A stretch of DNA of 24,000 nt from Thiotrichaceae bacterium (GTDB lineage Bacteria; Pseudomonadota; Gammaproteobacteria; SZUA-140), in assembly GCA_002401765.2 (NCBI GenBank), contig NVTY02000080.1, positions 1 through 24,000 on the forward strand. The letters run 5' to 3'. The notes under the pieces were generated by a model. That model did not search any database. It was not told where the DNA came from and was given only the letters and a program-made list of their open reading frames with translations. This document shows positions 5,648 through 22,421 of the stretch, one piece after another. A program made the translations under genes and the position numbers. Each line of letters starts with the position of its first letter. Positions within the stretch are counted from its first letter, which is position 1.

Positions 5648-6517
5648 TTATCCACCGTTGCGCAGATAGCAGCTGAGATCCTTCGGCGGGATATGGGTCG
5701 GACTGGGAAAAAGCCTAACCCCGCATTGAACAACCACAAATCGTGCCTGCGGGTAAAACAGCCCGACACGCGCCAGTGCACTGCGGAAGCGATCCCTGAA
5801 ATGGGCATCACGCTGGTAGCTGTTACCGAACTGCACCATCAACTCCCCCCAGGGGATGGTGACCGGCCGCTTCAAACTATAAAAACGATAAGTCAGCCAG
5901 CAGTAGATATCCATCGCTAATGGATAATGGCCACAGGCGTGCAGCACCCGCAGATCGACCGGGATCGCACTCTGCTGAGTATGCTGAAAAAACTCATCAC
6001 TCAACACCAGTCGAGACTGCCAGCGAAACGGAGAGGCGGGCTGCCACAGCAGTGAGGCTGACTGTGCAACGCGCAATGAGGCGATATCCCACCGCTGCTC
6101 ACTGCGCTCAGTCACCTGAATCGTACAGCTTAACAGCCGCTTCAACTGCTCACGTGCGTAAGTCAGCGAACCATTCCTGCCGCCGGTACTCGCCTTGCCC
6201 ATAAGATTAAGAAAGTCGGCCGTACTCGGCCCCAGTGAAACAACACGGCTCTGGCACTGTTTACTCAATGTGGTGATCGCACAGAGCGCCAGGCGCGGCA
6301 TCGCCCCATAAGGAAGACCTACCTCACGACTCGCCAGCATCGTAAGCGTGCGGTTACCATTGCGGCGGATGAACTCATTCTCCCGAGGCTTACTAACCGG
6401 CAGCGAGGTCGTCGCCATCAGGCGCGGAATAAAAGCGATCTGCTTCGACTCCAGCGCACTGCACTGTTTGATCTGCTCCGCAATATCGATGAGATAGGCG
6501 GCAGTGCGTTTCTTCAT
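5648..6517 (-). CDS. repA: Plasmid-type replication initiator RepA
   Basis: The 289-aa ORF contains GLPYGAMPRLALCAITT, TGGRNGSLTYAREQLKRLLSCTI and a C-terminal YCWLTYRF region. From memory these match the plasmid-encoded RepA family. The reading frame is intact and iterons lie immediately adjacent. Confidence 0.75.
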   Translation of the reverse strand: MKKRTAAYLIDIAEQIKQCSALESKQIAFIPRLMATTSLPVSKPRENEFIRRNGNRTLTMLASREVGLPYGAMPRLALCAITTLSKQCQSRVVSLGPSTADFLNLMGKASTGGRNGSLTYAREQLKRLLSCTIQVTERSEQRWDIASLRVAQSASLLWQPASPFRWQSRLVLSDEFFQHTQQSAIPVDLRVLHACGHYPLAMDIYCWLTYRFYSLKRPVTIPWGELMVQFGNSYQRDAHFRDRFRSALARVGLFYPQARFVVVQCGVRLFPSPTHIPPKDLSCYLRNGG

Positions 6518-18252: not shown

Positions 18253-19905
<1,653 letters not shown>

Positions 19906-19936
19906 GCTGTCTCTACAAACCCTGTAGAAATTAAGA

Positions 19937-19964
19937 CCCTCGCCAGTTTGGCGAGGGTTTTTTT
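19937..19964 (+). terminator. Rho-independent terminator of groESL
   Basis: ccctcgcc (19937-19944) pairs with ggcgaggg (19950-19957) across loop agttt, followed by a T7 run. Confidence 0.88.
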
Positions 19965-20282
19965 ATGGGTGCTATGCCTCAACTACCTTCTGAAAGGATA
20001 AATTATTCCTTATCCAAGGCAATAGCTGTAGTCAGCTTATAAACAAATAGGGTATAAACTCTCATACGAAATTTGTTATATTATTAAACAGATCGCTGTT
20101 ATACGCTTCTGAGTGACTCGCTTTTCAACTGCAAAGTCGGAGTACACGAATAGGCCCTACCACCCAAAACATGGCAATAGAGGAATATTCAATTATAAAT
20201 AAGCAGAAGGTCAAATGCTCACACTCATCCCTCTTCTAACTCATAAAATACCACTCAAGAAAGCTTTTAAATTGCCGATTAT

Positions 20283-20684
20283 ATGGAATATGGTATAGTC
20301 CACATAGATATTCATCAGCATGCTAGGCAAGATTTGAATGAATTGTGGCGTGATAACCCAAAGGCCGCAGCATCAGCCGAAGCAGTCCTGGAACAACTGT
20401 CAGCAGATCCCGAGGTTATCGATAAGCTTACAACCCACGGTGATAACACCACTGGGAAAAACCTAATTAATGTAAAGAGCTGGCAAAGCGTTCGCGGGAT
20501 TGCTGATTTGTGGAGGTTTCGTATACTAGAAACCCCAGCAACTACATGCCGAATCATTTATGGACATCATTGGTACACAAGACAGCTTTGTATATTTGCA
20601 GTAGTAGAAAAGGGGACATACGATTATGACAATCTTAAAAGTAATATCAACCAAAGAATCCTTACCGATTGGCGGGATCTCTAG
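20283..20684 (+). CDS. RelE/ParE-superfamily-like toxin candidate
   Basis: The 133-aa ORF has an N-terminal DLNELWRDNPKAAASAEAVLEQL and a C-terminal DLWRFRI....CRIIYG....LCIFAVVEKG.YDYD. This is the layout I recall for a RelE/ParE-type family that pairs with XRE antitoxins. It is AT-rich relative to its neighbours. The assignment was not checked by any search. Confidence 0.55.
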   Translation: MEYGIVHIDIHQHARQDLNELWRDNPKAAASAEAVLEQLSADPEVIDKLTTHGDNTTGKNLINVKSWQSVRGIADLWRFRILETPATTCRIIYGHHWYTRQLCIFAVVEKGTYDYDNLKSNINQRILTDWRDL

Positions 20685-21081
20685 CCCTTCCTCATCAAAA
20701 GGAAATGTTACTTTTTACGAATTTAATACCCAGCGCCCTATTCCTCTTCCCAATACGGTAAGCCTTGAATCACTTATACACGAGAGTGAAGCAGACCCCA
20801 TAAAAGCAAAATATTTATCTGAGGCGCGCAAAGAATTATCAAATGAACTTTACAGTGAAGAATCAAAAACATTGAACGGGTTACGCCTTACTGCTGGCTT
20901 ATCCCAAGTAAAATTGGCAAAGCTAGCTGGGACAACTCAGTCGCACTTAGCTCTCATTGAACAAGGAAAGAATGATCCAGGCACAGGCATGATTGCCAGA
21001 ATCGCAACGGCTCTTAATTTAAATGAAATTGATGTATTTCAAGCAATTCGAAACCAAGCGTGCAAAGACAAAGGTGTTTAA
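20626..21081 (+). CDS. XRE-family HTH protein (antitoxin/regulator candidate) with Ser/Pro-rich N-terminal extension
   Basis: The C-terminal Cro/C1-type HTH reads LRLTAGLSQVKLAKLAGTTQSHLALIEQGKNDPGTGMIARIATALNL. The only canonical in-frame start is ATG 20626, which overlaps the upstream ORF by 59 nt and follows AAGGGGA. Confidence 0.7.
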   Translation: MTILKVISTKESLPIGGISSPSSSKGNVTFYEFNTQRPIPLPNTVSLESLIHESEADPIKAKYLSEARKELSNELYSEESKTLNGLRLTAGLSQVKLAKLAGTTQSHLALIEQGKNDPGTGMIARIATALNLNEIDVFQAIRNQACKDKGV

Positions 21082-21516
21082 GTGATCACATCAAGAACCG
21101 TTATCTCACAATTTTGTGATGACATACGTCATGAATCTGGTAACAAGTACTCTCTAATGGGTTGCTACGGCAATGAGCTATTAGTTGAAAACTTGCCAAG
21201 CCTGCTTCCAAAATTGTGCGTGCAAGTCCGTGCTATTACCCCGATAGACAAGCCATTCACAAAGCTTCTTATACGGGCAAAAATGAATGATGAGATTATA
21301 GCTGAAATAAATGTACTACCAAATGGACCAATAACACCAAATTCAAGTGTTATCGATGCCCCTATTCGATCTGAGTTAAGTGTAATGATAGTGCTTTCTC
21401 CCCTAGCGATTGCAGAATCAGGAAAGTTGCGTATTGAAGCTGAAACAGATGATGAAATACTCCGAGGTGGGGTTTTATTATTCAGAGAAATATTGCCAAG
21501 CAATCACTCTTCATAG
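21082..21516 (+). CDS. Uncharacterised 144-aa protein, third gene of the cassette
   Basis: The GTG start directly abuts the stop of the XRE gene (taaGTG), with AAAGG upstream. The sequence is predicted soluble, with alternating hydrophobic beta-like patterning (SQFCDDIRHESGNKYSLMGCYG..LPKLCVQV). Function is unknown. Confidence 0.55.
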   Translation: MITSRTVISQFCDDIRHESGNKYSLMGCYGNELLVENLPSLLPKLCVQVRAITPIDKPFTKLLIRAKMNDEIIAEINVLPNGPITPNSSVIDAPIRSELSVMIVLSPLAIAESGKLRIEAETDDEILRGGVLLFREILPSNHSS

Positions 21517-21620
21517 TGCATGGCCTGAATCTCATGCAAATGAAATCCTAAGGATATTGCACTGCCCTCCCGGGTTTCGCTGGAAGCTCAGCCCGGGCTA
21601 CAGTTAAAACACCGTTGCTC

Positions 21621-22421
21621 TTATTCTTCGGGGGGTTGGTTTTCGCTGATGTAGTTTGTGATGCGCGCGAAAATTTCCAGGCTTAACACTTCGGCACGCA
21701 GGCTGGGGTCAATTTCAAGCGCATTGATTTCATCACTAGTCATGTATGGCTTTAATGTATTGCGGATTGTTTTACGGCGCTGTGAAAATGCCTGCGTGAC
21801 GACTTTGGCAAACAATGCCTCATCACTTACCTTAACTGCAGGTTCGCTGCGCGGGGTTAAGCGCACAATGGCGGAGTCGATTTTCGGCATCGGGTCAAAC
21901 GATTCTGGGCCGACGATAAAGAGGTTTTCAACCTCGCAGTGATACTGCACCATAATACTCAGGCGGCCATAGGTCTTGCCGCCCGGTTGTGCCGCCATAC
22001 GTTCCACCACTTCGCGCTGCAGCATGAAATACATATCACGAATAGAACTCGCCTGGCTTAGCAAGTGAAAGATCAGCGGCGTTGAGATGTTATAAGGAAG
22101 GTTACCCACCACCCGCAGTGATGATGGTGCTTTGGCGAGTGAGGAAAAATCAAACCTCAACGCATCAACGTTGTGAATATTTAATGTGCCGTGCGCGGCA
22201 CAATTCCTTGCGAGAATCGGCACCAGGTCACGATCAAGCTCAACTGCATCCATCTCACCTAGCTCATCTAGCAACAACGTCGTTAATGCGCCCTGGCCTG
22301 GCCCGATCTCAACGACGTGATCACCCTTGCGGGGAGCAATGGCATTAATGATGCGCAGGATCACTGCCTCATCATGCAGGAAGTTTTGCCCAAAGCGTTT
22401 ACGTGCGCGGTGCTGGCTCAT
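21621..22421 (-). CDS. rsmA: 16S rRNA (adenine1518/1519-N6)-dimethyltransferase RsmA/KsgA
   Basis: The ORF has KRFGQNFL, the SAM motif VVEIGPGQGALT and NLPYNISTP. It overlaps pdxA by 4 nt. Confidence 0.93.
   Translation of the reverse strand: MSQHRARKRFGQNFLHDEAVILRIINAIAPRKGDHVVEIGPGQGALTTLLLDELGEMDAVELDRDLVPILARNCAAHGTLNIHNVDALRFDFSSLAKAPSSLRVVGNLPYNISTPLIFHLLSQASSIRDMYFMLQREVVERMAAQPGGKTYGRLSIMVQYHCEVENLFIVGPESFDPMPKIDSAIVRLTPRSEPAVKVSDEALFAKVVTQAFSQRRKTIRNTLKPYMTSDEINALEIDPSLRAEVLSLEIFARITNYISENQPPEE

Follow-up and report, generated by a model that had tools for sequence, protein, structure and literature searches.

We analyzed a 24,000-nt window of DNA from a gammaproteobacterium of the Thiotrichaceae (assembly GCA_002401765.2, contig NVTY02000080.1, positions 1 to 24,000), focusing on three genes, here called g1, g2 and g3, that are tightly packed on one strand between the groEL terminator and the convergent rsmA gene (21621–22421, minus strand). 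All three open reading frames lie where an original prediction, made from the letters of the window alone, had placed them. Our results show that they form a conserved, mobile three-gene unit, which was acquired horizontally at this site and probably constitutes a tripartite HigBA-like toxin–antitoxin (TA)-type operon. The relevant features of the locus are as follows (lengths of products in amino acids, aa; HTH, helix-turn-helix).

20283–20684, plus strand: g1, ATG start, 133 aa; putative toxin with a RelE/ParE-superfamily fold in its structural model, HigB-like, toxin gene first
20626–21081, plus strand: g2, ATG start, 151 aa; putative antitoxin/repressor with an XRE-type HTH domain
21082–21516, plus strand: g3, GTG start, 144 aa; DUF6941/phrog_31406 protein
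19933–19966, plus strand: intrinsic terminator of groEL, 13-bp stem (stem-loop 19933–19961) followed by a T-run, detected in a scan for inverted repeats and terminators; left edge of the insertion
19970–21619, no strand assigned: whole 1.65-kb insertion, missing from the related genomes L244 and L245
19970–20254, plus strand: AT-rich non-coding leader, GC content 0.37; not common to other copies of the cassette
20255–21517, plus strand: conserved cassette unit, comprising a 28-nt leader and the three genes, as defined by DNA homology to L006/L012
20626–20684, plus strand: overlap of g1 and g2, 59 nt, with the ATG of g2 located within the conserved (F/Y)DYD codons of g1
21079–21084, plus strand: junction of the g2 stop and g3 start codons, TAA GTG, same frame
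21517–21620, no strand assigned: trailer from the g3 stop to the rsmA stop, 103 nt, with a CCCGGG…CCCGGG hairpin; not common to other cassettes

An insertion between groEL and rsmA

The AT-richer block that had been delimited by eye at about 19970–21620 is evident from its base composition, with a GC content of 0.372 in the leader and 0.406 in the cassette unit, as compared to 0.508 in the remainder of the window. Its nature becomes clear from two relatives, L244 and L245, whose RsmA proteins are 85% and 86% identical to that of the window. Both share the same neighborhood, with lptD-surA-pdxA-rsmA converging on groEL-groES-fxsA, followed by cutA and dsbD, but lack the trio, so that the stop codons of groEL and rsmA are separated by only 95 and 207 nt, respectively, rather than 1715 nt. 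Homology to these empty sites ends at position 19968/19969, at the end of the groEL terminator, and resumes at 21620–21637, at the rsmA stop codon. The inserted segment therefore extends from about 19970 to 21619 and coincides with the AT-rich block, which is thus a horizontally acquired insertion rather than a family-wide constituent of this interval. An earlier search for empty sites, based on a metagenome scan with RsmA, had returned only relatives with ~60% identity, none of them with groEL nearby. In the closest relative with a long contig (L243, 5818–6270; RsmA 89% identical), groEL does not adjoin rsmA, which is instead followed by a gene of 150 aa that lacks annotation and by a different gene set. 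Rearrangements downstream of rsmA therefore occur even between close relatives.

The window provides few hints as to the route of acquisition. As originally stated, it contains neither flanking direct or inverted repeats nor an integrase gene; a tRNA gene is likewise absent, and no target-site duplication is recognizable at the borders of the insertion. The locus does not have the makeup of an integron cassette either, as judged without a formal attC model from the lack of an integrase in the window and the contig flanks and from the fact that the trailer is not common to other copies. A repeat with a period of 9 nt (TATGGGTGG-type) at 19869–19899 was considered as a mobile-element feature but rejected, since it lies in the 3' end of groEL and encodes the GGM repeats at the C-terminus of GroEL. 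A promoter and an operator are presumably located in the leader (19970–20254). A promoter search returned weak consensus matches alone, the best of which overlaps the g1 start codon, and we assign none of them as a promoter; a search for operator palindromes yielded no convincing candidate. No Rfam family reached its threshold, with sub-threshold matches confined to the groEL terminator.

Conservation and mobility of the trio

To place the cassette in context, we collected g3 loci from species-representative genomes (80) and viral contigs (20 + 42) and scored the neighboring genes with profiles built in this analysis. These loci contain 123 distinct g3 sequences, 120 of which could be evaluated. 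They are distributed as follows.

g1-like and g2-like genes directly upstream of g3: 82 of 123 loci
Gene for a 165-aa protein and gene for a 135-aa HTH protein (X135) directly upstream: 12 of 123
g2-like gene only: 6 of 123
X135 gene only: 4 of 123
HicA and HicB genes upstream: 3 of 123, confirmed by Pfam
Gene for an MqsA-like zinc-ribbon/HTH protein, preceded by a gene for a 130-aa protein: 2 of 123, with the MqsA match below threshold
No such partner upstream: 11 of 123
Locus cut by the contig end: 3 of 123

Far from occurring mostly alone, g3 thus directly follows an HTH or antitoxin-like gene on the same strand in 109 of the 120 evaluable loci. Five homologs of g1 were looked up separately, and all of them belong to trios, with a distinct context in each case. 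No member of the g1/g2 family was encountered without g3, while g3 can occur alone, an asymmetry that matches the prediction for a pair depending on g3. The linkage of the three genes is maintained down to ~30% identity across Gamma-, Beta- and Alphaproteobacteria as well as phages. A copy from the Ectothiorhodospiraceae (L006/L012), located between the genes for PBP1C and citrate synthase, shows 79% DNA identity to the window, limited exactly to positions 20255–21517. Other trios are found next to genes for an integrase and a TrwC relaxase or in prophage regions with a terminase, Mor or an S24 repressor. The GC content of the trio is lower than that of the flanking DNA in 68 of 70 loci, with a mean difference of 7.3 points. 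Prophage-borne trios adjoin BrnT/BrnA genes (L192, 5400–5943) or DUF4160/DUF2442 genes with an HTH gene (L194, 3158–3876), in what look like small TA islands within prophage accessory regions.

The two gene junctions are similarly conserved. As initially noted, g2 starts within g1, giving an overlap of 59 nt. The next canonical start codon in frame is a TTG at codon 83, at the HTH domain, so that the overlapping ATG, which is preceded by a Shine-Dalgarno-like AAAGGGG run, is the only one that yields the N-terminal 80 residues of g2. Of 66 non-redundant trio loci, 65 have the first start codon of the g2 frame within the 3' end of g1; in most of them, the ATG is located 56–74 nt before the g1 stop codon, and several have an AAGGAG sequence upstream. 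At the second junction, the GTG of g3 directly follows the TAA of g2 in the same frame, without overlapping it. In 67 non-redundant trios, the g3 start codon lies at a distance of -4 nt (41 cases), -8 nt (11 cases) or -1 to +12 nt (the remainder) from the g2 stop codon. Such overlaps, present in 52 of 67 homologous loci, are apparently the signature of translational coupling, in agreement with the interpretation originally offered for the window. A fusion of g2 and g3 by readthrough of the single in-frame stop codon was rejected as a conserved feature, because the homologs mostly overlap by 4 or 8 nt and are thus in different frames. The three genes therefore behave as one unit in inheritance, movement and, apparently, translation.

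Particularly informative copies are found in the temperate Pseudomonas phages MD8 (KX198612) and phi2 (NC_030931), in which the trio directly follows cI on the same strand. MD8 gp52, gp51 and gp50 are homologs of g1, g2 and g3, with hhalign probabilities of 98.5 and 99.8 and 37% identity for g2. They are annotated as a HigB-like toxin, a HigA-like antitoxin and a putative Ig-domain protein, respectively, and gp52/gp51 have been independently described as a HigBA system, without discussion of gp50 (PMC8508860). The phage trios have the same gene order and couplings as that of the window, but reside in an immunity region rather than a chromosomal intergenic region, and their identity to the window proteins is ~27–37%. 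The toxin gene of such trios is often left unannotated, probably because of its long overlap with g2: the RefSeq record of phi2 has no coding sequence at L197 2140–2583, where MD8 carries the annotation of an identical 147-aa HigB-like toxin, and the gene calls of the Joint Genome Institute (JGI) for the contig of the window itself, a metagenome contig with identical sequence (L001 and L002, 5217–5600), omit g1.

Taken together, these data bear out the proposal that the three genes represent a unit of three parts, while its role as a TA or defense system is inferred. Three findings had been named beforehand as arguing against this proposal, namely a g3 family occurring mostly on its own, a g1 product with neither a RelE/ParE fold nor toxicity and a cassette conserved at its locus across the family with native-like composition; none of them was observed, with g1 judged by its modeled fold.

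Gene products and their families

The product of g1 had been read as a RelE/ParE-type toxin from its C-terminal sequence layout, an assignment that agrees with its predicted structure. An AlphaFold2 model based on 31 homologs (mean predicted local distance difference test score, pLDDT, 84.6) has a beta-alpha-alpha-beta4 topology with an additional C-terminal helix, and nearly all of its top 50 Foldseek matches in the PDB are RelE, YoeB, HigB/HigB2, ParE or YafQ structures (best E-value 9e-4; probability 0.9–1.0; target-normalized template modeling [TM] score 0.5–0.76). Membership of g1 in the RelE/ParE superfamily is thus indicated by its modeled structure, not by its sequence. At the sequence level, ParE_toxin was matched weakly by 4 of 31 family members (best E-value 4.6e-4) and Gp49 by 2 of 31; there is a weak match to phrog_5869, and some of the 46 g1 homologs found are named RelE by JGI. 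A comparison of the g1 alignment profile with the PDB returned nothing relevant. Arg, Lys and Tyr residues are conserved, among them R78, R80, R90, Y93, Y115 and R125. Based on the order of the genes and the fold neighbors of g1 (HigB2, RelE, YoeB), its most likely activity would be that of a translation-dependent mRNA endonuclease, with gyrase poisoning as the alternative.

For g2, the original prediction of an XRE-type HTH protein with a Ser/Pro-rich extension of about 45 residues proved to be correct as to the domain (residues 83–140; Pfam HTH_3, 3e-9, and HTH_31, 9e-9) and the Ser/Thr/Pro-rich stretch. This stretch, however, is only the first part of an extension that is N-terminal and comprises 80 residues in total. 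With g1 preceding the co-directional HTH gene g2 and overlapping it by 59 nt, the two genes show the arrangement typical of HigBA-type pairs. The two-gene core is a divergent member of the known HigBA-like kind.

No function had been recognized for g3. Its product matches phrog_31406, a family without assigned function, over its full length (2.9e-20) and DUF6941 (PF22091) with 23.8 bits, below the cut-off of 27 bits, and many of its homologs with 40–77% identity have a precomputed PF22091 match. Overall, 86 homologs were found (E-values down to 1e-86), and a g3 profile retrieved 3258 clusters at 50% identity (E ≤ 1e-3). Together with the 46 homologs of g1, these matches identify the reading frames as genuine genes, as opposed to chance ones. 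Among the family members of g3, the 150 with the highest scores have lengths of 120–211 aa and consist of a single domain, with no fusions. In its AlphaFold2 model (pLDDT 83.4), g3 folds into ten strands arranged as an all-beta sandwich. An N-terminal loop motif (FCDDIRHESGNKYSLMGCY, residues 11–29), of the type CDDxRxE…K, stands out in the alignment, with C12, D13, D14, R16, E18, K22 and G27 invariant even in the most distant members. We detected no toxin-antitoxin, chaperone or enzyme domain and no membrane segment in g3; a search of its alignment profile against the PDB gave nothing relevant, and a search of a literature collection returned no paper on DUF6941.

A closer look at the partner genes indicates that the DUF6941 family is joined to several types of TA pairs. 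The 165-aa protein and X135 are always followed by a DUF6941 protein (L047, L063, L072, L078, L083, L084, L203, L207, L223, L231, L235–L237). The 165-aa protein often starts with MLTYMATL…, contains a conserved W-E-L-K-T…R-x-F-G-W segment and has no match in Pfam or NCBIfam, and it may represent an undescribed toxin family. It was not assigned to the g1 family, because the profile comparison was not significant (probability 0.5%) and a by-eye resemblance to RelE/Gp49 does not constitute evidence. In several viral contigs (L109–L111, L224, L228, L229), the DUF6941 gene follows that of a 205–211-aa protein with a zinc ribbon and an HTH domain, which shows a full-length match to the MqsA family, with 25.9 bits as against a cut-off of 61.8 bits, and has an extra C-terminal tail of ~85 residues. 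The 130-aa protein encoded upstream ends with …W(L/I)IKSF, reminiscent of MqsR, with no significant family match. X135 has a long variable tail, and the HicB-like, MqsA-like and X135 antitoxins associated with g3 all possess variable, Ser/Thr/Pro/Gly-rich C-terminal tails of 45–90 residues, often with a short hydrophobic end. By analogy, these tails resemble the chaperone-addiction (ChAD) tails found in the antitoxins of toxin–antitoxin–chaperone (TAC) systems.

The g3 homologs that lack partner genes include a clade from metagenome-assembled genomes of the Steroidobacteraceae type (L023, L024, L026–L029, L034, L042, L045). Its members have an intact CDDVRQEIGNK motif, no toxin or HTH gene upstream and a fixed chromosomal site (g3 at ~6001–6414 in most), which is flanked, according to a by-eye reading of the open reading frames, by queC/queE-like genes on one side and, on the other, by a cstA-like gene in the opposite orientation. 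A neighbor-joining tree places these solo copies next to trios from the same group (L021, L022, L092) as their sister clade, which suggests that the TA genes were lost and g3 was retained.

Relationship to known systems and possible roles of g3

To our knowledge, SecB-like proteins are the only third-component family known so far for HigBA, HicAB and MqsRA pairs. In these TAC systems, which include HigB1-HigA1-SecB(TA) of Mycobacterium tuberculosis (Mtb) as well as E. coli HigBAC, MqsRAC and CmdTAC, the gene for a SecB-like chaperone follows that of the antitoxin, and the chaperone binds to a variable C-terminal extension of the antitoxin, thereby protecting it (PMC5105189). TAC systems occur on prophages and have been linked to phage defense, and the displacement of the chaperone by a phage protein triggers the toxin (summarized in PMC11980606). 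The g3-containing modules share with them the order of toxin, antitoxin and third gene, the attachment of the third gene to HigBA-type, HicAB and MqsRA-type pairs (the latter with MqsA assigned below threshold), the disordered variable antitoxin tails in most partner classes and the occurrence on prophages. However, unlike the alpha/beta fold of SecB, g3 is modeled as an all-beta sandwich, with no SecB match in Pfam or NCBIfam, its antitoxin in the window-type trio is extended at the N- rather than the C-terminus, and its invariant polar motif suggests a fixed ligand.

The core pair, in turn, is most reminiscent of HigB2-HigA2 from Vibrio cholerae, which also has its toxin gene first and contributes HigB2 structures to the fold matches of g1. 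For VcHigA2, an N-terminal disordered segment that neutralizes the toxin, followed by a C-terminal HTH domain, has been demonstrated experimentally (PMC5416850). The same succession of an N-terminal extension and a C-terminal HTH domain is seen in g2. In contrast to the trio, however, HigB2-HigA2 is a two-gene system without detectable sequence similarity to it; g1 is longer than HigB2 (133 aa as compared to ~110 aa) and additionally has a C-terminal helix and a conserved loop, IDKLTTHGDN, and g2 has an N-terminal region of about twice the length of that in HigA2. Third small proteins that enhance neutralization or regulate transcription, alongside a RelE/ParE-family toxin or a classical TA pair, are known from PasABC, PaaR2-PaaA2-ParE2 and omega-epsilon-zeta. 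These systems differ in gene order, and their third proteins are helical or DNA-binding rather than beta-sandwiches and show no homology to g3. The slot directly downstream of cI, occupied by the trio in MD8 and phi2, carries rexAB in phage lambda and typically harbors exclusion genes. The likeness to rexAB is positional only, with no relationship in sequence or fold, but the location of the trio after cI on the same strand leads us to expect its expression in lysogens. Surveys of the gene contexts of RelE/ParE and HicA make no mention of a third gene of the DUF6941 type.

On balance, we consider it probable that the block represents a horizontally acquired, tripartite HigBA-like operon of the TA type that resides mostly on prophages and other mobile elements, with g3 as the third partner. 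In such a system, g2, translated from the ATG embedded 59 nt inside g1, would bind an operator through its C-terminal HTH domain to repress its own operon and wrap its N-terminal extension around the g1 toxin to neutralize it. Termination-reinitiation coupling would tie the synthesis of g3 to that of the antitoxin. As a nearly obligatory partner of the pair, g3 could then bind to the antitoxin or the TA complex and set its stability or trigger, thereby filling the role of the SecB-like chaperone in TAC systems with an unrelated fold. The output may be the exclusion or abortion of infecting phages or, alternatively, the stabilization of the carrier element. Toxicity, neutralization, the binding partner of g3 and the role in defense are all inferred from these comparisons.

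Several observations weigh against this view. In the window, g1 has no significant match in Pfam, NCBIfam, PADLOC or the PDB sequences, and the E-values of its fold matches are modest (best 9e-4). PADLOC-DB v2 contains no model that matches g1 or g3, and g2 hits generic HTH models only. The fold matches of g3 in the PDB are weak and generic, with TM scores of 0.43–0.48 and the lipid-tail-binding sandwiches of UNC119, PDE6D and RhoGDI in first place, along with antibody domains, and those in BFVD are limited to uncharacterized phage proteins (TM score 0.54–0.61). Since g3 is not SecB-like, the module falls outside the TAC family as currently defined. Moreover, only ~7 residues follow the HTH domain of g2, which thus lacks a C-terminal tail, so that any ChAD-like element would have to be situated in the N-terminal extension. 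The invariant polar loop of g3 is identical across all partner classes and therefore fits better with a common ligand than with variable antitoxin tails. Several homologs (P0086, P0163, P0189, P0191, P0197, P0249, P0269) have C-terminal tails of 25–45 residues rich in Lys, Arg, Pro and Ala (e.g., …TTRKVAAKKAAARSVPTKKSK). Finally, the solo copies of g3 persist at a fixed chromosomal site, implying that the protein has some function of its own.

The role of g3 within the unit is correspondingly less certain than the existence of the unit itself. We tentatively favor an antitoxin-linked chaperone, adaptor, stabilizer or sensor, because of the parallel to TAC systems, with the same kinds of pairs, the same gene order and similar tails, and because of the asymmetric occurrence of g1/g2 and g3. 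There is also a substantial chance, albeit short of even, that g3 has a role linked neither to the antitoxin nor to nucleic acids or ribosomes. A nucleic-acid- or ribosome-associated co-factor, acting either as an operator co-repressor together with the HTH antitoxin, similar to PaaR2 or omega, or at the site of action of the mRNA-cleaving toxins, appears rather unlikely to us but has several points in its favor. The charged CDDxRxE…K loop, with its suggestion of a common ligand, and the existence of solo copies, with a function independent of a TA pair, could both be explained in this way. RelE-fold toxins and HicA, the identifiable partner toxins of g3 homologs, belong to families that act on mRNA, and the basic tails of the homologs listed above resemble the nucleic-acid-binding tails of histone H1-like proteins. 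On the other hand, the g3 protein of the window lacks such a tail, no known DNA- or RNA-binding domain is detectable, and the beta-sandwich gives no specific fold match.

It is less likely still that the trio is an ordinary two-gene HigBA-type pair followed by an unrelated passenger gene, comparable to a prophage 'moron'. While the solo copies of g3, its lack of a recognizable TA, chaperone or enzyme domain and the description of the MD8 system as a two-gene module could be taken to point in this direction, a passenger would hardly be expected to stay linked to the pair down to ~30% identity in three proteobacterial classes and phages, to share 4 or 8 nt with g2 in 52 of 67 loci and to lie downstream of every g1 homolog examined. 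In addition, the DNA unit shared by distant hosts ends exactly at the g3 stop codon, and the DUF6941 family follows four different types of pairs. The comparative data also favor an antitoxin-linked accessory over an effector: although the conserved polar motif might serve in catalysis or binding and the family is far larger (3258 clusters) and more widespread than that of g1 (46 matches), it is very improbable that g3 is a second toxin or a phage-directed inhibitor that is mainly regulated or guarded by g1 and g2, given that g1 already has a predicted toxin fold, that g3 is a small Ig-like sandwich with no enzyme-like fold match or membrane segment and that its solo copies, stable at conserved chromosomal positions without a regulator or antidote, argue against toxicity of g3 by itself.

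Returning to g3 as an antitoxin-linked partner in a tripartite TA-type operon, the two-gene core belongs to a known kind of system. What is new is the systematic, modular association of an uncharacterized beta-sandwich family with several TA families, analogous but unrelated to that of the SecB-type chaperones in TAC systems. It is tempting to speculate, and we regard it as possible rather than probable, that DUF6941 proteins constitute a second, non-SecB class of third components for type II TA systems, recruited repeatedly by HigBA-like, HicAB, MqsRA-like and the hitherto undescribed 165-aa/HTH pairs. They may restrain the antitoxin or the TA complex through the invariant CDDxRxE loop and release the toxin upon competition from a phage product or a common cellular ligand, thus serving as a new infection-sensing module in the immunity regions of temperate phages.

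Collectively, our findings point to a family that shows TAC-like modular attachment to the same kinds of TA pairs without being related to SecB. They also reveal a gap in current annotations, with g1-type toxin genes often missed by gene callers. The cultured Pseudomonas aeruginosa phages MD8 and phi2, with a trio after cI, make the module directly amenable to experimental analysis. Chaperone-containing TA systems represent the best-understood case of a module that senses phage infection, through the displacement of the chaperone by a phage protein. If g3 indeed controls the antitoxin, the DUF6941 family would have solved the same problem independently in evolution and offer a new approach to the triggering of toxins.

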